Shown here in pieces: positions 3,086 to 34,473 of a stretch of 64,000 nucleotides of DNA. How positions within the stretch are numbered: the stretch's first letter is position 1; every line of letters begins with the position of its first letter. This DNA comes from Candidatus Borrarchaeum weybense. Lineage in GTDB: Archaea; Asgardarchaeota; Sifarchaeia; Borrarchaeales; Borrarchaeaceae. The notes below the pieces were generated by a model, which had not been told where the DNA came from, searched no databases, and saw only the letters and a list, made by a program, of their open reading frames with translations. A program made the translations under genes and the position numbers. The DNA lies in NCBI GenBank assembly GCA_019057385.1, contig JAHQJS010000006.1, positions 549,038 to 613,037 of the forward strand, written 5' to 3'.

Positions 3086-3410
3086 GTGAACTACCTCACG
3101 CTAAAGCAGTGAGGCTTCCTGTTTCTGCGACCATTTGCCTTAACGTAGGCTATCTGATTCAGATACTCCAACGCTAACGTAGAGGTATTAGTCTCCGCAG
3201 GCGTGACTTCGGTAGGTCCCCTACCTAGGGTTTTATATGCTTCGTGTTCTAGTACACAACTGCTGTTATAATCACGGTCTATCACCAAACCGCAGTGATG
3301 ACACACATAGGTGCGTTCGGCTAAACTCAACAAAACTTATTAAGAAGTTTGAAACGTAATATTTTGACCCAATTCATCTCTAGGCTCAAGCTATGGGGCT
3401 TTCTTTTGTC
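3086..3410 (-). mobile_element. tnpB: Internally deleted IS200/IS605 element carrying a tnpB C-terminal fragment
   Basis: ORF 3091-3333 reads LSLAERTYVCHHCGLVIDRDYNSS (TnpB Zn ribbon / RuvC-III). Right-end hairpin at 3086-3119; left-end-like CAATTCATCTCTAGGCTCAAGCTATGGGGCTTTCTT at about 3371-3406. Confidence 0.85.
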
Positions 3411-6969: not shown

Positions 6970-8646
6970 TTGGTGAATGGTATGTCAAACCGTGAAAAAA
7001 GTGAACCTCGACTTGAAGGTATAGAGTCAATACATCATCGTGCGCTTTATAGGGCAACAGGGCTCACTGATGAAGATTTTAAGAAGCCGTTTATTGCCGT
7101 TGCAAACTCATGGAATGAGATTGTACCAGGTCATATTCATTTGAATAAACTTGCAGCTAAAGTTAAAGACGGAATTCGTGATGCTGGTGGAGTTCCTTTT
7201 GAATTTAATACGATTGCTATTTGCGATGGAATTGCCATGGGCCACATTGGTATGTCATCTTCGTTGCCTAGTCGTGATCTTATAGCAGACTCTGTTGAGC
7301 TGATGGTTTCTGCACATGGATTTGACGGTCTAGTGTGCCTAGCTAGCTGTGATAAAATTGTTCCCGGTATGTTGATGGCAATTGCCCGTCTTAATGTACC
7401 TTCTATCGTGGTCACAGGAGGCCCTATGCTTCCAGGCAGATTTAAGGGTAAGCCTGTAGCAATAACTGACGCCTTCTTAGCAACTGGCTGGGTTAAATCT
7501 GGGAAAATGACTTTGGAAGAGGCTGATGCCTTAGAAAAAGCAGCGTGCCCGGGTCCTGGCTCCTGTGCAGGTATGTATACTGCGAATACCATGTCATTAA
7601 TTACAGAAGCTCTTGGTCTCAGCTTACCAGGAAGTGCCACTGAGCATGCAATAGATGTAAGAAAAGAGCGAACTGCTCTTCAAAGTGGTCGCCAGATCAT
7701 GAAACTAATAGCAGATAATATTACAGCACATGAGATTATGACAAAAGACGCGTTTGAAAATGCAATTCGTTTAGCTTTAGCTGTTGGTGGATCTTCCAAT
7801 ATTATACTTCATCTTCCTGCAATAGCTAAGGAAGTTGGATATGAGTTAAAATTAGAGGTTTTTGACGAACTGAGCAAAGACACACCTCATATTATCGATA
7901 CTGTTCCTGGTGGACCTTATACACTAAAAGACGTAGATGAGGCAGGAGGAGTTCCTGCGATATTAAAAGTACTTGGAAATAAAATTCATCTTAATTCACT
8001 CACAGTGACTGGCAAAACTATTGGAGAGAACATAGAAGATGCCAAAGTGTTGAGATCTGACGTAATAAGACCCCTAGAAGATCCTGTGCATAAGGAAGGA
8101 GGCTATGCTATTTTGAAAGGGAACTTGGGGGTAGCAGTTGTTAAACAAAGCGCTGTCAAATCTGATATGATGGCTCATAAAGGACCTGCAAAAGTTTTTA
8201 ACTTAGAAGAAGATGCGCTCGCTGCAATTCTTGATGGACGCATTCCCAATGGCTCAGTTGTCGTAATTCGTTACGAGGGACCAAAGGGAGGTCCTGGTAT
8301 GCGTGAAATGTTAGCCCCTACCTCCGCGATAGTAAGCATGGGTTTAGATAAAGTTGCACTCATCACTGATGGACGATTCTCTGGAGGAACGAAGGGCCCT
8401 GCGCTAGGACATCTATCGCCAGAAGCTGCAGAGGGCGGAACTATTGCGGTAGTCGAAGATGACGACCTTATCGCTATAGACATTCCTAATCGAAAATTAG
8501 AACTTCTTATCTCCGATAATGATCTTCAGGAACGCCTCGGCAGATGGAAACCTCCCAAGAAAAAGATTAGAAAGGGTTATCTGGCTCGATACGCGCTACT
8601 CGCCAACTCTGCGGATAAAGGTGCCTATCTGCAGGACAAAATTTAA
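6970..8646 (+). CDS. ilvD: Dihydroxy-acid dehydratase (likely start ATG 6982)
   Basis: PGHIHL, CDGIAMGH, CDKIVPG, CAGMYTANTM, GPKGGPGMREM, TDGRFSGG. Confidence 0.97.
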   Translation: MVNGMSNREKSEPRLEGIESIHHRALYRATGLTDEDFKKPFIAVANSWNEIVPGHIHLNKLAAKVKDGIRDAGGVPFEFNTIAICDGIAMGHIGMSSSLPSRDLIADSVELMVSAHGFDGLVCLASCDKIVPGMLMAIARLNVPSIVVTGGPMLPGRFKGKPVAITDAFLATGWVKSGKMTLEEADALEKAACPGPGSCAGMYTANTMSLITEALGLSLPGSATEHAIDVRKERTALQSGRQIMKLIADNITAHEIMTKDAFENAIRLALAVGGSSNIILHLPAIAKEVGYELKLEVFDELSKDTPHIIDTVPGGPYTLKDVDEAGGVPAILKVLGNKIHLNSLTVTGKTIGENIEDAKVLRSDVIRPLEDPVHKEGGYAILKGNLGVAVVKQSAVKSDMMAHKGPAKVFNLEEDALAAILDGRIPNGSVVVIRYEGPKGGPGMREMLAPTSAIVSMGLDKVALITDGRFSGGTKGPALGHLSPEAAEGGTIAVVEDDDLIAIDIPNRKLELLISDNDLQERLGRWKPPKKKIRKGYLARYALLANSADKGAYLQDKI

Positions 8647-8680
8647 AGCAGTTAGAAAACTCGATGGGCTTCTATAAGCC

Positions 8681-10060
8681 TCATTTTTTCACAATTATTA
8701 GGTCTCTTGGCTTAGTAACAGAACCCACGAAGAATATATTTTTTCGTATGAATTTCTTCTCTTCCTGAATTTCTCCTTTAATCCAATGACTGGCTAGCAT
8801 CTTGTTAATGACTCTTTTCAGCTGTTCTTCGCTGAAAACATTCGCCATTAATTCATTTAAATAGATCTGATGCTCTTGCTCTCTTGATAATTGCTTAAGA
8901 ATTTTTCTTATAATTTGTTCTTCGTCTGAATTCAAAGAGTACAAAAAATCTTCCAACAACTCTTTTTCGTTTACTACTTCCACGTTTATGCCTTCACGAG
9001 ATAACTGTTGAACAAGATTTCTGACAAAACTTGCGGATACGTTGTATTTCTTTGCTGTTTTAGAGAGCAGATATCGCCCCTTCTTTTTCAGCAGTTGTTC
9101 TTTGATTTTCGGCTTCGCGAAGTATTCCAATGTTCTCGCAATGAGACGCCTGGTTTCTTTTTGTGTGGTTTTACGTTTTAGTTTAGTCAATTTTGAAATG
9201 ATGTCCTTTTCCATATGAGGATAACTCTCGTAAATATCAATAACATACGCATACGCCAGTTCTCTTATTCTTTTTTCTTCGTCTTTAAAAAGCTCAAGAA
9301 TGAGAGGGGCAAATTCATCAACTTTTTCATTTTGCTTCTGAAGGATTATATTGATACAATTCATGGCAGAGAGTCTTACTTCAAAAAATTTCTCATTTAA
9401 TCCACTCTTTACCATGGGGAGGACGTCCTCTTTTAAAATATCTCTTGACCATAGTTGGCAAAATGCCCAAAGCCCTCCTTTTCTCATCCAAAAATCATCG
9501 GATTCCAATGCCTTTTTAAGTAACTTTTGCGCTTCATTTAAGTCCTCATCATTTTGCTGGAGATAATCAACAATTGCTCCAATTGTAAAGTATCGGGTCC
9601 AACTATCTTCGTTCTCCATTTGTTTGGCTAGAAGTTGAAAATCCGAGATACCCTCTTCGTCTTCTTGCATATATTGGGTTCTTAAAAGATCAAAAAACTT
9701 CTCCGCCGCTATATGAGGAAGATATGGGCTTTGAGATCCAATAGTTCCAAGCGCATAGAGAGCATTTTCTTGAACCTCTGCATATTTATCATTTAGGCTG
9801 GTTAAGAGCTTAGGAACCGCTATTTTAACCAGATTAGGCTCTTGTAAACCAATATCTCCCAGAACCCTTGCGATTGTAGCCCTTATGTAACTGTCATCAT
9901 CATTTAGAGTTTCTACGAGTTCTGGTATAACCTCCTTAATTTTAAGAGGATCCTCTTTTCCTATTTTTCCAATAGTCTGGGCAGAAATTCGTCGTTTTCC
10001 AACATCTTCATCAGAAAGTCCACTTAATAGTTCCTCAACATCACTTTTCAATTGATACAA
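8681..10060 (-). CDS. HEAT-repeat protein with C-terminal winged-helix-like domain(s)
   Basis: Repeated L.D....VR..A...LG units; C-terminal HWIKGEIQ wing-like motif. Confidence 0.8.
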   Translation of the reverse strand: MYQLKSDVEELLSGLSDEDVGKRRISAQTIGKIGKEDPLKIKEVIPELVETLNDDDSYIRATIARVLGDIGLQEPNLVKIAVPKLLTSLNDKYAEVQENALYALGTIGSQSPYLPHIAAEKFFDLLRTQYMQEDEEGISDFQLLAKQMENEDSWTRYFTIGAIVDYLQQNDEDLNEAQKLLKKALESDDFWMRKGGLWAFCQLWSRDILKEDVLPMVKSGLNEKFFEVRLSAMNCINIILQKQNEKVDEFAPLILELFKDEEKRIRELAYAYVIDIYESYPHMEKDIISKLTKLKRKTTQKETRRLIARTLEYFAKPKIKEQLLKKKGRYLLSKTAKKYNVSASFVRNLVQQLSREGINVEVVNEKELLEDFLYSLNSDEEQIIRKILKQLSREQEHQIYLNELMANVFSEEQLKRVINKMLASHWIKGEIQEEKKFIRKNIFFVGSVTKPRDLIIVKK

Positions 10061-10187
10061 CGTCCCTTGGCAAATTTTAAGTTTACATCACTCTACTTGA
10101 TAGGTAGATTTTCATTAGATCCTATGGTAAGTTAATTAGATTTACTTTTTTCTATTAAATTTAGTAAGTTATTCTTAAGGTGATAGG

Positions 10188-10432
10188 ATGAATATTTCAC
10201 GGGAGAAGATTCCGCAATTTCAGGAAAGGGAAGGTATTGCTCAAGACTTGAGCAAAGCATGGGAAAATCATTCAGATTTTTTGAAAAGATTCCCTTTTAG
10301 AAAAAATCCTGATTCCACCTAAGAATGACTAAAGAGAAACTTGGGAAGACAGGCTCTGAAGATTTTTTCTTTTATTGGCTGCAATACCCCCTAGGTTGGC
10401 TTGGGTTTTATACTGTTTGGGAAGCTCTGTGA
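10188..10432 (+). pseudogene. Frameshifted fragment resembling the N-terminal region of McrB-like/restriction proteins
   Basis: RBS AGGTGA plus ATG. Reads ...DFLKRFPFRKNPDST*, then in a shifted frame MTKEKLGKTGSEDFFFYWLQYPLGWLG. The F..RFP / FYWL..LG pattern is recognised from memory. Confidence 0.4.
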
Positions 10433-10475
10433 AAGATAATAGCGGGAAAAAGATTTTAGCGAAGATAAAGAAGAG

Positions 10476-11972
10476 TTAAATAACCTTTCTTAACCAATTG
10501 GTGAGATTGAAGAAATCTACGGCGTGCACATTCTTGTATTTTCTCACTAATGGGGTATATTTTGTCACGACACATGCAAATACTTTATATGTTTCTCTTT
10601 CACCGCTTATTGTGAGTTCTTCCTTAAATTTTTCAAAGTTATTTTTGAAAAATTCAACACGTTCTCGTTGTTTCAACATTTGATCTAGAAGTCTCTTTTT
10701 TTGCAGCAATTCCTGTTCTATGAGTGTCCATCCAGATATCGAAGATGGTGAAATGTCCCAATATTTTGCTTCCGCTAATACAATAGTCTTTTCGGTTTCT
10801 TTTATGGCAATTGCATCATACTCAGGACTATCTCTCGAAATTTTAACTGGTTTATCGGGAACGCTGTATCCATTTTCCGATAATAACTCTCTTACACGTT
10901 GCTCAAAGACCTTGGCGGCTTGTTGCTTTTTTTGTGCTATTGACTGTGAGGGATCATTCACATTTTCATCGTTTAAACCAAGAAGATGAAACAAAAGAAA
11001 TAGTATTGTACTAGGGTCGCAAAGGATTTGGTCTCCTTCTATTAGAACCAAAATTGGTGCCCTCGCTTTTGAAACCATATATTCGCGTAAAAAGGCATCT
11101 ATATCTAATCCATATTTTTCATAATTGAGTAAGTAACTTTTTATTCCATTTACCGTCCATTTACTCCTATTGGAAAAAAATAATCCAAGTAGCGCCGCTA
11201 TGTCTGCACTTGAAACATCATATTTAACTTGCTGTGCTGTGCGGTAATATAGACACAAAGCATATTTCGTGCGTATAATGTGTTCAAAAAATTGAACGAA
11301 GTATTTTTCAAGTTCCATGCCTTGTTCCAATTGAATATCCTCTCTTACTTGTTGATCTATTTCTGAATATCTAAATACGTCCTCAGTTATTCCAATAGAA
11401 CTACTAATAAGCCCCCAATTTCTAAGCATTAAAAATAAAGCATCCAAATACTTTATTTGAAAAACCTCATTGTCTGAGACCCTGATTAAACGACGTCTGT
11501 TTTCAAGGTCATCGATAAAATTTAATCTAGTCACATAATAGCTATATTCTTGTAATAAAGACTCAAAGTCTGGATTGGTATTGGAACGACCAATCGATGG
11601 AGAAATTGAATTGAGATCTATAAACATTTGATTTGTTGTGAAGAACTCATTTAGTATCATTCCTTTTCCTGCAAAAAATCCATCTATGAGTTTTTTACGA
11701 TAGGAAAAAATAAGAGTTTTCAGTATAGTCTCATTAAATTCTTTCATTTTGGCTAACAGGCTATTTTTCAGTTCATCGATTTCATTTTTTAACTTTTGTG
11801 CTCCTTTAACATTATAAAATTCAATTCCAACAGGAAAAAGGATGCATTTCGGATTTACACAAATTTCTTCTTTTGTGTTGAGTCCTAAATACAGTAAATG
11901 TTTACATTCTGTACATAGATAATCCGATATGGTCTCCATGATTTTATGCCATGGGTAAAACTCACTCACCAT
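10476..11972 (-). CDS. Protein with an N-terminal Zn finger and a C-terminal PD-(D/E)XK nuclease domain
   Basis: CTEC...CVNPKC at the N-terminus; FEQRV...EYDAIAI.....IVLAEAK at the C-terminus. Confidence 0.75.
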   Translation of the reverse strand: MVSEFYPWHKIMETISDYLCTECKHLLYLGLNTKEEICVNPKCILFPVGIEFYNVKGAQKLKNEIDELKNSLLAKMKEFNETILKTLIFSYRKKLIDGFFAGKGMILNEFFTTNQMFIDLNSISPSIGRSNTNPDFESLLQEYSYYVTRLNFIDDLENRRRLIRVSDNEVFQIKYLDALFLMLRNWGLISSSIGITEDVFRYSEIDQQVREDIQLEQGMELEKYFVQFFEHIIRTKYALCLYYRTAQQVKYDVSSADIAALLGLFFSNRSKWTVNGIKSYLLNYEKYGLDIDAFLREYMVSKARAPILVLIEGDQILCDPSTILFLLFHLLGLNDENVNDPSQSIAQKKQQAAKVFEQRVRELLSENGYSVPDKPVKISRDSPEYDAIAIKETEKTIVLAEAKYWDISPSSISGWTLIEQELLQKKRLLDQMLKQRERVEFFKNNFEKFKEELTISGERETYKVFACVVTKYTPLVRKYKNVHAVDFFNLTNWLRKVI

Positions 11973-12397
11973 ATTTCAACATCCAAATTAAAAATGATAA
12001 TCTAGATTTCCATTAGTATATTCGTAATTGACTAGTAATATCGGTTTTTTTGTTTTCATTTTTTACTTGAAAGATTGAGTTTCATGTATAGACGATTGAT
12101 AACACTATAGAACAAAGATTTGTCGATTAATCTCGCTGCCTTTAAAGATCTTTATGAAACTATTTTTTTCTTGTTTCTTCTTCTGTATCTGACCATATCT
12201 TCCTAAAACATTCAAACGGATGGATAAAGGTTTTATGCACTTTTTTGTCATAGTTATCATTAGATTGAGGAGCAATAAAAGTAAAACAGCATTCCAGAAA
12301 AACGAGGATCAAAACAATGAGTAATCACCTAATGAACGTAAGCAAAAACTTGAACAATGAAAAACGGAAGAAATCCGGATAATTTTGTAAAATAATG

Positions 12398-13105
12398 CTA
12401 GATCTTTACAATATTCATCTCTCTTTTTCTATATATTTTCTTTTTCTCATATCTAAAAAACATTCCATATATAATAGAGCTTGCCACCAAAATAACAACT
12501 ATGATGATAATCATCCATAGAAGTGAAACGTAATCTGAGATCCACAACCAGTAAAGACTAAGAAACACCAAGATCAAACCCCAGAAGCGTCGTCTAAACC
12601 AAATCAAAAACCGTATTTTATGGCGTTCGATGTATGATTTTAAGAAGGTATGAATGCCGAACGTACTATCTCTTTGATAACTACTCATTTTGGTAATCCT
12701 TTTTTCAATACCTCGAACACGGGCATAAGCTATATCATCAAGACGCTTTGTTGTATAATGCACACCGAATAACCATATGGAATAAAGAAATATCGAGGCC
12801 AAAGCATCAACTAAATGAGTCTTATTCCCATTGCTTTTGATTAAAATTTCACTGAAAGTTTCACTAACAATAAGAAAGGCGGCAGCTACTAATATCGTTC
12901 CTACTACAAGCGTGATATTCTCCCTGCGCTCTATTTCATTATTTGTGCATTCATAATCTTTCAATAATACATCGATTTCGATATTCTGATTTTCATTAAA
13001 ATGATACTCGAATAAACTTGGTTTTCCAAACTCAAGTATCACGATATAGATCATTGAAAGAACAAATCCAATTACTGAAATCACAAATGTCCCCAAATCA
13101 GACAC
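12398..13105 (-). CDS. Hypothetical multi-pass membrane protein
   Basis: About five hydrophobic segments; GTG start after GGGGGA. Confidence 0.7.
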   Translation of the reverse strand: MSDLGTFVISVIGFVLSMIYIVILEFGKPSLFEYHFNENQNIEIDVLLKDYECTNNEIERRENITLVVGTILVAAAFLIVSETFSEILIKSNGNKTHLVDALASIFLYSIWLFGVHYTTKRLDDIAYARVRGIEKRITKMSSYQRDSTFGIHTFLKSYIERHKIRFLIWFRRRFWGLILVFLSLYWLWISDYVSLLWMIIIIVVILVASSIIYGMFFRYEKKKIYRKREMNIVKI

Positions 13106-13182
13106 AGAATATCCCCCAGCCTATTAATGGCATTTGTCTAAAATAAGTCTGCTTGTAATAAAAAAAACTTAGTATCTTTTAA

Positions 13183-13329
13183 TTAGAGTGCGTTTTCTTT
13201 TAACCATAGCCGGATAGCTTCTTCAACGGCTTTACTTAAATAACCTCTTCTAAGACCGAATTTTTTCACTCCTTTTTCACGTAATTGTTGTTCAAGGTCA
13301 TCTGGTATGGACACGCTAATACTTCCCAT
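13183..13329 (-). CDS. Ribbon-helix-helix (CopG-like) DNA-binding protein
   Basis: MGSISVSIPDDLEQQLR...GYLSKAVEEAIRLWL. ATG 13329 follows an AAGGTGAT RBS. Confidence 0.85.
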   Translation of the reverse strand: MGSISVSIPDDLEQQLREKGVKKFGLRRGYLSKAVEEAIRLWLKENAL

Positions 13330-13516
13330 GCTATCACCTTGTGGACCTTTTACAGGTAGCCTTTTCATGTTTCACATATACTTTATACTATAAAACAAAC
13401 ATTCTTTTCCTTTAAAAGTATTATTATTCCACACAAAATATATAAGATAAAAGATATATGTTATAATAGATTTCTGGCAAACTAAGAGATGCTAGAAAAA
13501 TCGCGAGGTTGTAAAC

Positions 13517-14350
13517 ATGAAACAAACAAAAAAACAGATCGTGATTCGTGCCTATACACCCATAGCTAAACCTCTCAATGCGTCTATTCAAAAAAATGCA
13601 ACTATGCTTCTCCTCGGCGAAATTCCCTATGAGAATGGGTCAAAAGTATTCAATACTAAACTTTATTACATCAAAGGTGTACGTGGGATGCTGAGACATG
13701 CTTGTATGAAGTTAGCTCAGGCTTGCGGTATTGAAGTGTGTCATAGCAGTGAAAAAACGGAACTCAAAGACGGAACTAAACTTATTTCTTCGGGTTTTCA
13801 TCCGCTTGGTGCATGCAATCCTCCGTGTATTCTCAGGCGCCTTTTTGGTACCTTCCGCGAAGAGTCCTCGATTTCTGTCTTGGTTGATCCTATCGCCTCT
13901 ATCAGGCATAAAGAATATACTACTGAGGTAGTTGTTCAAAAAGTTCATATCTCCAGCGAGAATAGGATTGCCCTTGCCTATGATCGAACTCCCATTCAAG
14001 ATTTTCGTGAAAGCTATTTCAGTGGTTATTTTAGCTTCTGTATTGACGTAACCACTTTAACTGATGATGAAATCAAGTTTCTCATGGAATCACTGCTCTA
14101 CATTGAGATACTTGGTGGTGGCAAAAACGCGGGTTATGGGCGTGTCAAAATTCTGGATTTCGAAGTCCAGAAGATTGGTATCGTAAGAAACATCGAGAGA
14201 GATAATGGCGCCTACAAAATTAGTGAAAAAACTGAAGTGCAACCAATACTGCTTGAAAACATCGAGGAGTGGAGGACTGCATATATGGGAGAAAATTTGG
14301 CAGCGGTCGAACAAGAACAAATCTCTGCCCTAGTTAGTGATAAAAAATGA
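13517..14350 (+). CDS. Cas7-group (Csm3-like) RAMP protein
   Basis: Strand + TP, KGVRGMLRH helix, C..H..C..C Zn site before LFG, ENRIAL, and the G-rich loop LGGGKNAGYGRV. Confidence 0.85.
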   Translation: MKQTKKQIVIRAYTPIAKPLNASIQKNATMLLLGEIPYENGSKVFNTKLYYIKGVRGMLRHACMKLAQACGIEVCHSSEKTELKDGTKLISSGFHPLGACNPPCILRRLFGTFREESSISVLVDPIASIRHKEYTTEVVVQKVHISSENRIALAYDRTPIQDFRESYFSGYFSFCIDVTTLTDDEIKFLMESLLYIEILGGGKNAGYGRVKILDFEVQKIGIVRNIERDNGAYKISEKTEVQPILLENIEEWRTAYMGENLAAVEQEQISALVSDKK

Positions 14351-15150
14351 CAAAAAACTGGATAAAATTATCGGGTATAACTAAAACACCTGTTGTAAGC
14401 AAGAGAAAACGTTTTTTTCATAAATACGGTGTAATTACTATTAATGGTCGTCCTAGAGCATTTGGTAAACTTACAAAAGGAGAGAAACGCGCTCCTATGA
14501 CATTTAGAGCTAGATATGGAACAGTAGAGTTCGTTGTTCCACAGTCTAAACTTGAGCAAGCATTCACTGTTGATACCATCGGGAGATATACCCATGAAGG
14601 AATGGGGCAAATTGTCTGGAGAAGTGTGAAGCACCTCCAAAAAAAGCCCCTCTACGCTCCAAGAAAAATTAAGATTCGTAAAATGCTTCCCAAACTCTCA
14701 GATGCACAGAAAAATCTACTAAAAGCCTTTCTTTTACATGATTTCGTGCATACCGAAAAGCATCGAAGTAAAATCTACAATGAGATTGACATAATTGATG
14801 AAGAAGTTTACAAATTAGCAAAAAATCATCATAATTACAATTTTGACGAAAGAGAATTGCCTCTCCTCTCTACCCTTCACTATTATGATCGCCTTTCCGC
14901 GATGATTTCTCGAAAATTCAGATGGTCTGCCTCCTCGCGTTATCGTGTGAATGTTCAAAAGGAAATAGATTTCGATATGCTAAAAAGAGAGATAGAATCA
15001 CGCCAATATTCTCTTTGTGCCCTTTATGGTTATGTGTACAAATCTTGTGTACTTAACAAAATCAATGAGGCGCTAAAATTTGGTTTCTCTTCTTTGAAAA
15101 ACCATCTCTTATTAATGGTTAATCTCTATATTGATGACTTTCATAGGTGA
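14347..15150 (+). CDS. Miniature (Cas5-like) RAMP fused to a Cas10-type permuted HD nuclease
   Basis: The first ~92 aa carry KTP and the G-loop IGRYTHEGMGQI. Then LLHDFVH...NHH...YDRLSA and a late SLKNH. The start overlaps the cas7-like stop (ATGA). Confidence 0.7.
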   Translation: MTKNWIKLSGITKTPVVSKRKRFFHKYGVITINGRPRAFGKLTKGEKRAPMTFRARYGTVEFVVPQSKLEQAFTVDTIGRYTHEGMGQIVWRSVKHLQKKPLYAPRKIKIRKMLPKLSDAQKNLLKAFLLHDFVHTEKHRSKIYNEIDIIDEEVYKLAKNHHNYNFDERELPLLSTLHYYDRLSAMISRKFRWSASSRYRVNVQKEIDFDMLKREIESRQYSLCALYGYVYKSCVLNKINEALKFGFSSLKNHLLLMVNLYIDDFHR

Positions 15151-15164
15151 GCCCATATGCTTCA

Positions 15165-15320
15165 AATCATGATATTGGTATTCCTCTTTGCAGGCAAATA
15201 CACTGGATACAAGGCGGAATGTTCTTCGCACCACGCGGAGAACACGTTCTTGTGCATGAGACTGAACCCGAGAGGTCCCACGCCTCAGATGAAGGGAATG
15301 AATGACAGGCAGAGGACGAG
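15165..15320 (+). ncRNA. Candidate structured RNA downstream of the RAMP-HD operon
   Basis: About 53% GC over 15181-15320 (my count) in an AT-rich genome. Long hairpin 15208-15253 with G-U pairs, a second hairpin 15257-15287, and a possible closing stem TATTCCT/GGGAATG. Confidence 0.5.
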
Positions 15321-16292
15321 AAAAGTGATAAGCCTTAGTAACTTGTTTATTATCTTATCTGCTGTTCGTGTGTCTTCTGGATTTTCTTCAACGACATCTT
15401 GGTTCAACTCAAATGATGGCAAATTTGCAAGTACAGCTACGATACTTATTATACTTTGTTTTGCGACCCAAAGATTAGATCCTCCACTTAATAAGACTAC
15501 GAGGTTATCATCACAGCTATCTTTAGCTGCTTGTGTGATTATTTTAGCCATTTCAGGAAATGCAGAGGTCGTCAAGTTGAAACCGCCATAATCCGCGTGA
15601 TGGGAGTCATGCCCAAAATTCCACAAAATCATTTCAGGCCCGAATTTTTCGGCAAGGAATGGAGTTAGTTCTTGTAAAACTCTCAGAAAGCCTTTATCAG
15701 AGATATTTGAGGGCAGAGGGATGTCAAATTTATTGGATTTTATTAAATCGTCACTAAATGAATAGCCATCGGAAAAAAAGTTTAGATGTACCACATTTTC
15801 GTCACTCTCAAAAATATTCCGTGTGCCATCTCCTGGATGGGGATCTGTGTCGATTATCATGAATCGTTTGACATTGTAAGTGTTTCTAAGATGTTGAATA
15901 AGTAACGCAGAATTGTTAATGTAGCAAAAACCCCAATATGAATTACGACTTGCATGATGCCCAGCAGTTCCAGTAAAAACAAAGGAATTTTTTACTTTCT
16001 TCGTCCAGACCATTTCTCCTGCCAGTAAAGCTCCTCCCGCTGACAGCCGTGCGGCCTCATAACATTCATCTTCTTTGACTCTTGCAAGATGTTGCGTAGT
16101 ATGTATTTGAAGAATTAATTCTTCTTTTACTCTCTCAGGTGTTTGAATAACTACTCTGTTGTCTCGGTCGTTTTCTTTTAGAAAATCCATTAAAGAATTG
16201 TATGCGGGTGCTAATCTTTCTCGTAAAAAGAGATTTCCATGCGTTGCAAACTTCGGGTGATAAATCAAGCACGTCTGGGGCATTTTAATCAA
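15285..16292 (-). CDS. Histone deacetylase / AcuC-family protein (likely start ATG 16283)
   Basis: GHHA....WGFCYINN, IDTDPHPGDGT, FGHDSH..D, SGGS. Confidence 0.92.
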   Translation of the reverse strand: MIKMPQTCLIYHPKFATHGNLFLRERLAPAYNSLMDFLKENDRDNRVVIQTPERVKEELILQIHTTQHLARVKEDECYEAARLSAGGALLAGEMVWTKKVKNSFVFTGTAGHHASRNSYWGFCYINNSALLIQHLRNTYNVKRFMIIDTDPHPGDGTRNIFESDENVVHLNFFSDGYSFSDDLIKSNKFDIPLPSNISDKGFLRVLQELTPFLAEKFGPEMILWNFGHDSHHADYGGFNLTTSAFPEMAKIITQAAKDSCDDNLVVLLSGGSNLWVAKQSIISIVAVLANLPSFELNQDVVEENPEDTRTADKIINKLLRLITFLVLCLSFIPFI

Positions 16293-16349
16293 AATGGTAT
16301 GTAAGGCAACTCCTTCCTAAAAAATCTAACTGCTAGGAGAGGGTGACCT

Positions 16350-17036
16350 CTAATCTTCGATTAGCCTTTTTGTCATCAACATCTTTTCTAAAAGTTTGAT
16401 ATCTAGTTGTCTCGGAATTACTTTATTTTTTATAGCATACACCATCACACTATCATCAATTTCTTGCGCAACCAATACTCCGTAAACTTCATCGACTAAA
16501 ATGTAACTAGAACTCAAATCTACTCGACCTCTTTCTTTTATACTCTTCACATAATCCAGTATTTGATCCACGTCCTCTTTTTTAGGTTTTGTTTTCTTAA
16601 GTTCGATAACAGCCAGTTTGTTCATGGGATCTTGGGCTAAGATATCAATCCTCTTACCTTCTGATAGAGTGACTTGTCGACCCAGCACTCGATAATTCTC
16701 ATAAATAATCCCTGTCAATAAGGTTGGGTATTCTGCTAGAACTTTCTCTATATCTAATTCTGTGAAACCTTCAGTCTTGATATTGAAAGGTTCAAGATTT
16801 ATCTTATAAATTCCTTTCAACTGTTTTGCTCTTTTTATATATTCCCTTGCATGCTCATAACATTCATCGTAGAGTTTACTGTCCACTCCCATTTCCATTA
16901 TTTGAGTCAATGTTTCTGCAGCCTGCAAATAAAGTCTAATAGCTGTTTTTTTGTCGCTTTTTTTGTCGACCTCGATTGCTTTTTCTGCTGTTGATTTTGC
17001 TGTCTTTAACAGCTTTGAGATTTGGTTTTGAGACAT
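16350..17036 (-). CDS. MIT domain fused to a NucS/EndoMS-like PD-(D/E)XK endonuclease domain
   Basis: A...AEKAIEVD......AIRLY..AAE.L...YIKRAKQLK (MIT); E.DIE...GRQ....GKRIDILAQD....AVIELK...QILDY (NucS C-terminal type). Confidence 0.8.
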   Translation of the reverse strand: MSQNQISKLLKTAKSTAEKAIEVDKKSDKKTAIRLYLQAAETLTQIMEMGVDSKLYDECYEHAREYIKRAKQLKGIYKINLEPFNIKTEGFTELDIEKVLAEYPTLLTGIIYENYRVLGRQVTLSEGKRIDILAQDPMNKLAVIELKKTKPKKEDVDQILDYVKSIKERGRVDLSSSYILVDEVYGVLVAQEIDDSVMVYAIKNKVIPRQLDIKLLEKMLMTKRLIED

Positions 17037-17149
17037 TTCAATCAGTTACTTTCTAGTAGGAAAGAAGGTGATCTTTATATTTTTTGGAAGTTAATTTGTA
17101 AGAACAGGAAAAGAAGTTTTTTCAAATAGCTATTCTAGGTTGGATTCTT

Positions 17150-18775
17150 ATGAATCACGATTTTATAACAAGGAAAGTTGCATTGACTCATGGAAATGTA
17201 ATTACTATGGACGAGACGAATCCGAGGGCTCAAGCGGTTCTTGTGATAGATGATAAAATCTTCAAGGTTGGATCCGATGCGGAGATCGAAAGACTGATTG
17301 ATGGAGATACGGAGGAACTGAATCTTGAAGGGAAGACATTGATTCCAGGATTTGTAGACTGTCATGCGCATCCTATAAACTTTGGACTTGCACTCATGGC
17401 AGTTGACTGCAAGACGCCATCTGTGAATTCCATTAAGGAGATAGTGGACAGGATTCAATTGACAGCAGAAGATAAATCAGAGGGAGAATGGATAATTGGC
17501 AGAGGTTATGACGATTTCAAACTGTCTGAGAAGAGACATCCTAACAGATGGGATCTAGATGAGGCTGCACCTAACAATCCTGTCATAATTACTCGATTCT
17601 GTGAGCATATTTCAGTTGTTAATAGCCTAGCTCTAGAACTTGCAGGTATATCAAAGGATACAAAGGATCCTGAAGGAGGGCAGATTGATAGAGATCCTAA
17701 GACTGGTAAACCAACTGGAATTTTGCGGTGGGGTGCTAAGGAATTGGTATTACGAATTATTCCTCCTCCTAGCGTAGCACAATTGAGACAAGCTATAATT
17801 TTGGCTTCCGAGCAATTTCTGGCCAAAGGAGTAACTTCAGTGTCCGAAGCCGGCGAAATAAATGCCTCGGCTATGAAAGCATATCAGACTGCAATATGGG
17901 ATGACGACGTACCCCTTAGGGTTAACTTGATGATGCCAATGAGCATGCTTGGTTTTTTACGGAAACTTGGTTTTTCAACAGGTTTTGGCAATGATAAACT
18001 TCGAATAGGACCAATAAAGATCATAGCTGATGGATCAACATCAGGAAGAACTGCTGCCCTATCTGAACCTTATGAAGATTCACCTGAGAATATCGGCATG
18101 ATGTATCTTAGTCAGAATGAGTTAAATAGCATAATTCTCACCGCTCATAGCGCAGGATTCCAAGTAGGTGTTCATGCAATCGGAGATAGAGCTATTTCAG
18201 CAGTTATCGACGCAATTGAGTTAGCCTTGGAACAATTCCCAAAAACTGATCATAGACATCGAATAGAACATTGTGGAATAAATAGTTCAACCATTGTAAC
18301 AAGACTAAAGAAACTGGGCATTATACCTGTTCCGCAACCCATATTTCTTTATGGTGAGGGTGAGAGTTACAGGGCAGGCTTGGGCGAAGACAGGGTAAAA
18401 TGGGCGTATCCCCTAAAGTCGTATATCGAGAGTGGAATCACGACACCTATGAGTTCAGATTGCCCCTGTACTTCTGGATCCGAGTTAATAAGCCCCCTTC
18501 TGGGTATTTATGTAGCCATTACTAGGATGACCGATGCCGGTAGAGAAATCGGAGCTGAACAAAAAATTGGAATAAAAGATGCCCTCAAGGCATATACCCT
18601 TAATAGTGCTTATGTAACCTTCGAAGAAGGTGTAAAAGGATCCATCGAGCCAGGTAAACTCGCTGATTTTGTTGTACTATCGGATGATCCTTTTAATGTA
18701 AGAGATAATGAAATTAAGGACATATACGTGGAAATGACTATAATAGGTGGCAAGACTGTTTATGAGAAACCATAA
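17150..18775 (+). CDS. YtcJ-like amidohydrolase (Amidohydro_3)
   Basis: PGFVDCHAH, KIIADGS.SGRTA, HAIGDRA, RIEH, SSDCP, GSIEPGKLAD. Confidence 0.93.
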   Translation: MNHDFITRKVALTHGNVITMDETNPRAQAVLVIDDKIFKVGSDAEIERLIDGDTEELNLEGKTLIPGFVDCHAHPINFGLALMAVDCKTPSVNSIKEIVDRIQLTAEDKSEGEWIIGRGYDDFKLSEKRHPNRWDLDEAAPNNPVIITRFCEHISVVNSLALELAGISKDTKDPEGGQIDRDPKTGKPTGILRWGAKELVLRIIPPPSVAQLRQAIILASEQFLAKGVTSVSEAGEINASAMKAYQTAIWDDDVPLRVNLMMPMSMLGFLRKLGFSTGFGNDKLRIGPIKIIADGSTSGRTAALSEPYEDSPENIGMMYLSQNELNSIILTAHSAGFQVGVHAIGDRAISAVIDAIELALEQFPKTDHRHRIEHCGINSSTIVTRLKKLGIIPVPQPIFLYGEGESYRAGLGEDRVKWAYPLKSYIESGITTPMSSDCPCTSGSELISPLLGIYVAITRMTDAGREIGAEQKIGIKDALKAYTLNSAYVTFEEGVKGSIEPGKLADFVVLSDDPFNVRDNEIKDIYVEMTIIGGKTVYEKP

Positions 18776-34426: not shown

Positions 34427-34473
34427 GTGAACTACCTCACGCTAAAGCAGTGGTGCTTTCTTGCTTAGCTACT
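34427..34473. mobile_element. IS605-derived single-hairpin mini-element, family A
   Basis: GTGAACTACCTCACGCTAAAGCAGTG (matches the 3086 end) joined to GTGCTTTCTTGCTTAGCTACT (matches 481-501). Confidence 0.8.

Follow-up and report, generated by a model that had tools for sequence, protein, structure and literature searches.

We analyzed a window of 64,000 nt from Candidatus Borrarchaeum weybense (positions 549,038 to 613,037 of contig JAHQJS010000006.1); the window's own genome (G000; 4.18 Mb) comprises 8 contigs, including those designated C3, C4, C5, and C6. At the locus under study, two plus-strand genes, encoding a Cas7-like RAMP protein (13517 to 14350) and a Cas5-like RAMP protein fused to a Cas10-type HD domain (hereafter Cas5-HD; 14347 to 15150), face a convergent minus-strand open reading frame (ORF) of the host, which belongs to the histone deacetylase family (HDAC; 15285 to 16292; Pfam Hist_deacetyl, 2.5e-51). 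The segment between these convergent ORFs (15151 to 15335) had previously been predicted, from the sequence alone, to be a G+C-rich, structured RNA that serves as the partner of the RAMP module and possibly carries its own guide. Its G+C content is indeed elevated (i.e., 0.49 over 15150 to 15289 and 0.50 over 15195 to 15337, versus 0.36 to 0.39 per contig; about 37% G+C for the genome). Our analyses partly confirm the observations of this original prediction and partly support and sharpen its interpretation: the comparison of related copies argues that the segment is a real, conserved folded RNA.

A BLAST search with the segment against its own genome yielded 23 matches (73 to 89% identity), and iterated nhmmer searches defined a core of about 125 nt with 29 copies (15206 to 15329 on the plus strand for the window copy), so the segment is not unique. 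An alignment of 24 full copies (A1) and the covariance model R1 then led to 59 copies, of which 55 are distinct, in the window's own genome and in four further members of the genus. The model matched the window copy at 15195 to 15337 (149.1 bits; E = 1.6e-27), and it found 3 to 20 copies in each of five other genomes (the four from the genus and one from the same class). No match to R1 was found in 145 other genomes sampled from the phylum, nor, even with filters off, at distant homologous loci (Heimdall, Thor, and G028). Rfam 15 gave no match at gathering score in the whole window and none at an E value of 10 or lower in 15100 to 15400. As had been noted before, repeat-spacer arrays are lacking: a CRISPR array search of the window found none, and the sole array of the genome (C4:148433-152109) has an unrelated 37-nt repeat, to which the RNA unit shows no similarity.

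The fold of the unit was obtained with RNAalifold from the 24 copies, and its support was measured on the 55 distinct copies against 500 shuffles. Over the whole fold, 94.5% of the cells were paired, versus 87.5% in the shuffles (0 of 500 as high), and double changes were observed in 113 cells, versus 35 in the shuffles; when the partners were slid by 1 to 3 columns, only 41 to 60% of the cells were paired. The 5' hairpin, P1 (15220 to 15244; TGTTCTTCGC-ACCAC-GCGGAGAACA, including one U·G pair), is hypervariable, with a sequence that is almost wholly different between copies, and yet it is always paired, with compensatory changes on both sides at eight of the nine modeled pairs. A long-range helix between CGTTCTT (15245 to 15251) and GAGGACG (15312 to 15318) closes the core (95.5% of the cells paired; double changes at 4 pairs), and many of its pairs are U·G pairs that are readable only on the plus strand. 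The inner hairpin (GAGGT-CCCAC-GCCTC; 15272 to 15286) is paired in 98.5% of the cells, and its closing pair exchanges among G-C, G-U, and A-U. Most copies have U·G at several pairs, where the opposite strand would have to form A·C; the RNA therefore appears to be read on the strand of the cassette genes.

The folding energy of the whole segment is ordinary (z = -0.64 for the plus strand and +0.93 for the minus strand), so the evidence for a structure is comparative rather than thermodynamic. Of the checks that had been suggested for the original prediction, folding of the single sequence was thus uninformative, while the alignment of related copies with a test of covariation supported a fold across the 55 distinct copies. 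This fold is only partly the one that had been drawn. The inner part of the hairpin placed at 15208 to 15253 is P1, while neither its outer extension (ACAAG/CTTGT) nor the proposed second stem (TGAG/CTCA around ACC/GGT) was confirmed, as both lack support beyond sequence conservation: jointly, they were paired in 86.2% of the cells, versus 85.5% in the shuffles (78 of 500 equal or higher), and they compete with the covariation-backed long-range helix and inner hairpin. The proposed stem partner TATTCCT (15179) lies outside the conserved unit, and the purine-rich 3' tail (15288 to 15335) is at the same time the antisense of the last 16 HDAC codons.

A K-turn or C/D-box reading of GAUGAC and CUGA was rejected by eye, as the strand polarity is wrong. 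An integron attC site is an imperfect inverted repeat with pairing ends (R''/L'' with L'/R') that follows diverse gene cassettes; this identity was also rejected, as the fold of the unit consists of a local hairpin and an internal long-range helix with unpaired unit ends, and the units flank only Cas7 and Cas5-HD genes. In a genome-wide search for trans sites complementary to the conserved loops (up to 3 mismatches), no site stood out.

The units are linked to the two genes. Searches with tblastn revealed 11 paralogous gene pairs in the genome, and nine of these cassettes share one layout on a single strand (i.e., Cas7, 70 to 90 nt, unit, about 100 nt, Cas5-HD, 60 to 90 nt, unit). Units stand at fixed positions on the same strand as the genes in 10 of the 11; one divergent cassette is devoid of the unit, and another has lost its Cas5-HD gene. 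The window cassette has the last unit only, because its Cas7 and Cas5-HD genes overlap. Where the last unit ends, homology between cassettes breaks off sharply. The units are conserved as well as, or better than, the cassette genes, and the terminal units are the best-conserved copies (113 to 118 nhmmer bits, versus 74 to 107 for most internal ones). Solo units and units beside decayed genes also occur. Six cassettes are preceded by an ORF of 1,327 to 1,367 amino acids with an N-terminal DEAD/DEAH helicase domain (Pfam DEAD, 3.4e-27), and two of these ORFs contain a Cas1 domain above the cutoff (PF01867; 40 and 36 bits), so that the ORF looks like a helicase-Cas1 fusion (e.g., on the minus strand at L075:2831-6811 in C3; L numbers denote extracted stretches of genome or metagenome contigs). 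Such long-form cassettes are also found at C5:121343-122176 and C4:342074-342907; the window cassette has no helicase-Cas1-like gene.

Two further arrangements of units were observed. At C5:119439-119854 (L104), two tandem units about 145 nt apart, with unique sequence between them, lie ahead of a Cas5-HD gene; this arrangement resembles a two-repeat mini-array, and the tail of its first unit has no match elsewhere in the genome. On the minus strand at L004:1703-2173 (C4, about 903.6 to 904.1 kb), two terminal units of one cassette enclose a small GIY-YIG-like ORF, which is read in the frame of the first unit.

The position of the guide is indicated by the sister cassettes. In seven cassettes of three lineages, the roughly 40 to 47 nt after the internal unit match the plus strand upstream of the cassette's own cas7 gene, 90 to 43 nt before the ATG. 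The match begins at base +1 after the unit and covers the TATA box of the cas7 promoter, and the 12 nt before it (i.e., the unit end versus the promoter flank) do not align. At C4:525096, 40 of 47 bases are identical, and six of the seven mismatches fall at positions 6, 12, 24, 30, 36, and 42 (hypergeometric p, ~4.5e-6); at C4:341418, the first 40 nt contain seven mismatches, five of them at multiples of six (p, ~2e-4). In a genome scan with 27 tails, the promoter hits matched at 30 to 34 of 35 non-sixth positions and at only 1 to 2 of 7 sixth positions, whereas paralogous tails in the same scan matched at sixth and non-sixth positions alike.

In class 1 effectors, every sixth base of the guide is flipped out on the Cas7 backbone. 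Mismatches with this spacing therefore correspond to a Cas7 register, and the unit behaves as a giant structured repeat or handle with the guide 3' of it. Judging from this sequence pattern, the bases directly after the internal unit probably act as a Cas7-bound guide in the sister cassettes. Such a guide has the sense of the promoter plus strand, so it would have to pair with DNA and not with the cas7 mRNA. By analogy, the last 8 nt of the unit (AAAGTGAT; 15322 to 15329 in the window) would be the 5' handle that stays on the guide. Because the guide lies directly 3' of the unit in the sisters, the window segment would be the scaffold or handle part, and the guide of this copy would start at 15330 (putative guide tail, 15330 to 15376 on the plus strand, given internal tails of 40 to 47 nt). 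A structured RNA tied to the RAMP module had thus been recognized correctly, while the single-stranded guide that was expected within 15151 to 15335 is misplaced; the suggested role as an RNA antitoxin found no supporting evidence.

The proteins encoded by the cassette are compatible with such a complex. The Cas7-like product matches Pfam RAMPs (5.2e-07) and PADLOC Csm3 (3.4e-08), and the best Foldseek matches of its AlphaFold model (predicted local distance difference test [pLDDT] of 79) comprise type VII Cas7 (6.9e-07), type IV-A Cas7, Cas7-11, and Csm3. The Cas5-HD product has no Pfam family, and Foldseek found nothing for its model at an E value of 0.001 or lower. This model (pLDDT, 86) has two parts, which were compared with known structures by VIA-align. 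Residues 1 to 105 form a single RRM that is closest to Cas5-type subunits (Z of 7.0 to 7.3 for type IV-A Cas5); with these middling Z values, this part of the model is probably Cas5-like. Residues 118 to 267 form an HD domain that aligns with the N-terminal HD domain of Csm1/Cas10 (Z, 8.7; 136 residues; root mean square deviation, 3.3), and its metal-binding residues (H131, D132, H139, H161, H162, D181, and H253) are invariant in 40 homologues. The two proteins are predicted to bind each other: their modeled complex scored an ipSAE of 0.66, versus 0.00 for the best control, at a mark reached by 58 of 80 solved complexes and by 2 of 110 mismatched pairs, although this pass may partly reflect likeness to solved Cas7-Cas5 complexes. 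The model runs share at least 77% of the contacts, the partner has a pLDDT of at least 72, and the interface lies on the RRM of Cas5-HD.

A database search found about 120 homologues of the cassette proteins, all of them in Asgard archaea (i.e., Candidatus Borrarchaeum, Promethearchaeota, Sifarchaeia, Heimdallarchaeota, Hodarchaeales, and Thorarchaeota). Upstream of cas7 in the window, a small divergent ORF (13183 to 13368, minus strand) is weakly RHH-like (Pfam RHH_6; E = 0.0015, below the curated cutoff), and distant homologous loci (Heimdall and Thor) carry a divergent MazE/HTH gene at the same place; the ORF is probably a protein regulator of this type of cassette.

Comparison with sister genomes (G002, G003, and G004) places the unit at the border of an insertion. 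A 5.2-kb segment (10092 to 15339) is absent from the orthologous site in G004 and G002: positions 1 to 1490 of the G004 stretch (L078) align with 8605 to 10091 of the window and positions 1501 to 2498 with 15340 to 16340, and the G002 stretch (L079) behaves alike. In both sister genomes, the HDAC gene directly adjoins a HEAT-repeat gene (8681 to 10060 in the window). Homology resumes at 15335 to 15340, i.e., the right junction lies no more than 10 nt from the end of the unit. The HDAC ORF encodes 335 amino acids in the window versus 322 in G004, whose ORF ends just past the break in homology; the window gene has lost its own last few codons and stop, and its last 16 codons and stop now come from the antisense of the RNA unit. 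The window tail consists of 5 to 10 nt of element-side sequence followed by host DNA that is antisense to the HDAC 3' end. A second insertion (C4:523017-534464) is absent in G002 and G003, and there the 3' end of the unit lies 8 nt from the junction (C4:523016). At two sites, the empty site resembles the last bases of the unit (AAGTCAC in G004 and AAATCATC in G002), a resemblance that is too short to evaluate.

An internal unit is still present in the nearest relatives of the window cassette from metagenomes (Cas7 92% identical). One such relative lies on a JGI metagenome contig (L110:1787-3896) between the genes for an MIT-nuclease and an amidohydrolase (16350 to 18775 in the window). A sister cassette thus occupies another site of the same neighborhood, which indicates that this lineage of cassettes is mobile. 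In L110, the tail after the terminal unit extends into the TATA box of the amidohydrolase gene (same sequence at 17075 to 17097 in the window). Two long-form cassettes are bracketed by near-perfect direct repeats of 12 to 14 nt, about 4,750 nt upstream of cas7 and 9 to 13 nt after the terminal unit (TATTTCA(A/G)AAATGG at about C4:747405 and 754225; ACTT(T/A)ATCGGCA at about C3:98748 and 91890). These may be target-site duplications; no such repeats were found in four other long-form cassettes. A candidate duplication in the window (CTTAGTATCTT at 13168 versus CTTAGTAACTT at 15334; 10 of 11 identical) was rejected, as the same search space contained equally good chance matches.

On balance, we favor the interpretation that 15206 to 15329 is the scaffold and handle of a CRISPR RNA (crRNA)-like RNA for a mobile, array-less Cas7/Cas5-HD effector, with the flanking 40 to 47 nt as its guide, and we hold it with moderate confidence. 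The unit would be equivalent to one repeat, though a very long and structured one. Transcription on the cassette strand would start from a TATA box of the unit, as seen before some copies, or reach the unit as read-through of the Cas5-HD gene. The Cas5-like RRM would hold the bases at the 3' end of the unit as a retained handle, and the following 40 to 47 nt would run along a Cas7 filament as the guide, one base in six being flipped out. In the sister cassettes, the guide of the internal unit would bind the cas7 promoter of its own cassette, on the template strand and across the TATA box, and thereby cause autorepression. In the window cassette, the internal unit would have been lost in favor of the RHH-like regulator, and the terminal guide would be the DNA beside the insertion (i.e., the HDAC 3' end). 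The family, the fold, the gene linkage, the insertion junction, and the 6-nt register in the sister copies were directly observed, and we infer transcription, processing, protein binding, and any function of the window tail.

Several points weigh against this interpretation. Searches with 13300 to 15700 and 14347 to 15345 turned up no sequencing run recorded as RNA. The TATA box is degenerate before the window copy, so the RNA may here come from read-through of the Cas5-HD gene. The window tail has no second match in the genome, and the cassette has no internal unit, so that the evidence for a register comes from paralogues only. Against the upstream region of the window's cas7, the tail matches at 15 of 35 positions, which is background; within the window's cassette lineage (L110 and L112), the internal tail also matches the cas7 upstream region of that lineage at background level (18 of 35), and this region carries the RHH-like ORF instead. 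The same-class genome (G005; assembly 80% complete) holds 20 R1 matches, yet only broken fragments of Cas5-HD genes and no Cas7 gene were found in it; units may persist there after the loss of the genes, or the assembly may lack the cassettes. An effector with an apparently intact HD nuclease and a near-complete match to its own promoter would also need some restraint.

The strongest alternative, which we nevertheless consider unlikely, is that the terminal copy is a structural end of the mobile cassette with no working guide, its tail having no role; the folded unit might then be the site recognized at integration or copying (e.g., by the helicase-Cas1 fusion) or a leftover duplicate of the regulatory internal unit. 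The coincidence of the unit end with insertion junctions at two independent sites, the displaced sister cassette in the same neighborhood, the helicase ORF before six cassettes (two with Cas1), the direct repeats around two long-form cassettes, the solo units and units beside decayed genes, and the terminal tails, for which no other target was found in the genome, are all as this alternative would have it. It is harder to reconcile with the strand asymmetry of the U·G pairs and with the internal tails and their 6-nt register, which point to a Cas7-bound RNA and not to a DNA site, or with internal units that have the same fold and stand at no element end. The terminal units are, moreover, the better-conserved ones, four of them are preceded by a TATA box at a fixed distance, and the window cassette carries no Cas1-helicase gene.

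Quite doubtful, in our view, is the further proposal that a terminal unit and its host flank function as a guide and thereby tie the cassette to the place of insertion. Cas7/Cas5-HD (together with helicase-Cas1 where present) would then recognize the DNA beside the element, and, much as with TnpB and its omega RNA, the cassette would be retained or re-homed as a result. Alternatively, the neighboring gene or promoter would be silenced (i.e., the HDAC 3' end here and the amidohydrolase promoter in L110).

We regard it as improbable that the unit is a cis-acting mRNA element (i.e., a processing site, stabilizer, or terminator) that separates and tunes the Cas7 and Cas5-HD messages and involves no guide. 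Units do lie on both sides of the Cas5-HD gene, P1 is the only terminator-like site in 13000 to 16500 by a consensus scan, and relatives of Cas5 and Cas6 (i.e., type I-C Cas5d and Cas6) cut RNA at the bases of hairpins. However, archaeal termination depends on oligo-T and not on a hairpin, and P1 is followed by a run of only CGTTCTTGTG; the promoter matches with their sixth-base mismatches, the solo copies far from any cassette, and the roughly 100 nt of strongly conserved core beyond the hairpin would all be left unexplained. A short-peptide gene or a decayed coding remnant (the latter named in the original prediction as a possible refutation) is highly improbable: most copies have one plus-strand frame without a stop across the unit, and two of the indels measure 3 nt, but the most variable codon position is the second (0.68, versus 0.45 and 0.42), the compensatory changes in P1 rewrite the would-be peptide, indels of 1 nt occur in P1 and near the 3' end, and the 144-amino-acid ORF has no Pfam family (one match with an E value of 0.05, far below the cutoff).

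Modules of the ARAMP and HRAMP kind, from Asgard archaea and haloarchaea, respectively, were reportedly described by Makarova et al. (CRISPR J, 2020). They are characterized as array-less, type III-derived, and nuclease-associated systems, mostly with a distinct Cas1 and an enigmatic mechanism (PMC8730458, PMC12669027), and the review names HNH and PD-(D/E)xK as their most common nucleases. Matched on these descriptions, the window module fits the ARAMP-like systems: the host is an Asgard archaeon, highly diverged Cas7 and Cas5 homologues form the core, and the locus has an associated nuclease and no CRISPR array. Cas1 is present in many ARAMP loci; here, a Cas1 domain lies within the helicase ORF of two long-form paralogues, and the window cassette has none. 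In contrast to those systems, for which PMC8730458 and PMC12669027 mention no dedicated RNA, the window module has a 125-nt structured RNA with a putative guide tail in its sisters, and its nuclease, an HD domain, forms part of the Cas5-like protein. Pfam, NCBIfam, and PADLOC have no profile for the published ARAMP protein families. By description, the protein family appears to be a known one (ARAMP-like), while the RNA, its fold, and the logic of its guide are found neither in Rfam nor in these two papers. Type IV-C systems unite Cas7 and Cas5 with a large subunit that is Cas10-like and has an HD domain, and they recognize double-stranded DNA (PMC13676074). The window module would likewise be a small class 1 effector that combines Cas7, Cas5, and a Cas10-type HD domain and acts on double-stranded DNA, but its HD domain is fused to a minimal Cas5-like RRM, and it has neither a large subunit nor an array.

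With the crRNAs of class 1 systems (types I, III, IV, and VII), the RNA would share a conserved 5' part and a 3' guide of about 40 to 47 nt with every sixth base exempt, as well as Cas5 and Cas7 as partners; the match pattern expected of 5+1-nt pairing was seen for the internal units of the seven sister cassettes, whereas no target of the window tail was found in the genome. It differs in that the unit is about 125 nt long with several helices, versus repeats of 23 to 50 nt, and in that there are one or two units per locus and no array, the sister copies being about 1.1 kb apart with a gene between them. The guides here would be fixed (i.e., the cassette's own promoter) or flanking DNA, and not acquired spacers.

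CreR and CreA and other regulatory mini-arrays encode crRNA-like RNAs that direct Cascade to repress cas or toxin promoters. The units resemble them in being crRNA-like RNAs among cas genes with guides that match a promoter of their own locus, implying autoregulation. CreR and CreA, however, use degenerate ordinary repeats and partial, seed-type matches in array-bearing systems, whereas the match here is essentially complete except at sixth positions, a large structured RNA serves as the scaffold, and the internal unit is missing from the window cassette. Mention of creA is made in PMC8730458. A further likeness is to the omega RNAs of IS200/IS605 TnpB and IscB, with a structured scaffold at the very end of a mobile unit and a flank that would be read as the guide; the unit lies at the insertion junction at two sites. 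Here, though, the partners would be a Cas7 filament and Cas5-HD and not a RuvC nuclease, no TnpB or IscB gene is adjacent, and no transposase of the TnpB/IscB element family is present. The first 5 to 13 nt of the tail are also element-side sequence, which would spoil a seed match to the empty site.

The current CRISPR classification lists ARAMP and HRAMP as array-less derivatives with an unknown mechanism. A system described as array-less appears to have guide RNAs after all, and a conserved, covarying RNA at fixed positions of the cassettes would show that at least this branch is still RNA guided. The fold and the promoter-matching tails together would identify the guide and predict DNA rather than RNA targeting as well as self-regulation; predictions for the bench follow (i.e., the RNA to coexpress, the start of the guide, and the bases that should not matter). 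Inserted DNA that ends at the RNA, with many copies beside helicase-Cas1, possibly points to a new kind of CRISPR-derived mobile element, and if terminal guides did tie cassettes to their sites, class 1 CRISPR parts would here make up an RNA-guided mobile element with a link to Cas1. For tool builders, a class 1 effector reduced to two proteins, with its guide on a single transcript, may also be of interest. The window itself contributes a terminal copy with a precise empty site and a host gene with a rewritten end, and a type of cassette that would have swapped an RNA autoregulator for an RHH-like gene.

Other features were observed around cassettes and their distant homologues. The island of 11.4 kb that is absent from the sister genomes contains a gene on the minus strand (L098:657-4667; C4, about 525.6 to 529.7 kb) for a protein of 1,337 amino acids with weak NACHT/STAND signatures, which adjoins the C4:525k cassette. 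On a Heimdallarchaeota contig, a distant cassette homologue ends beside a convergent RNase P RNA gene (L099:8966-9332, minus strand; RF00373, 147.5 bits); the G+C-rich block after this homologue was rejected as an RNA unit, as it is the RNase P RNA on the other strand. For another distant homologue (L102), inspection by eye suggests an end next to a tRNA-like sequence. A repeat of about 165 nt that is unrelated to the RNA unit (L084:673-836; C6:209272-209435) has dozens of copies in all four other genus genomes and is probably a miniature mobile element. In the window, a 35-nt hairpin-forming repeat (GTGAACTACCTCACGCTAAAGCAGTGAGGCTTCCT-like) occurs in four scattered copies (189 to 223, 503 to 537, 3086 to 3120, and 34427 to 34461). 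Next to the HDAC gene, the minus-strand ORF at 16350 to 17036 encodes an MIT domain (2.4e-09) fused to a NucS-like PD-(D/E)xK nuclease domain (1.6e-08), and this protein weakly matches the PADLOC candidate defense family PDC-S11.

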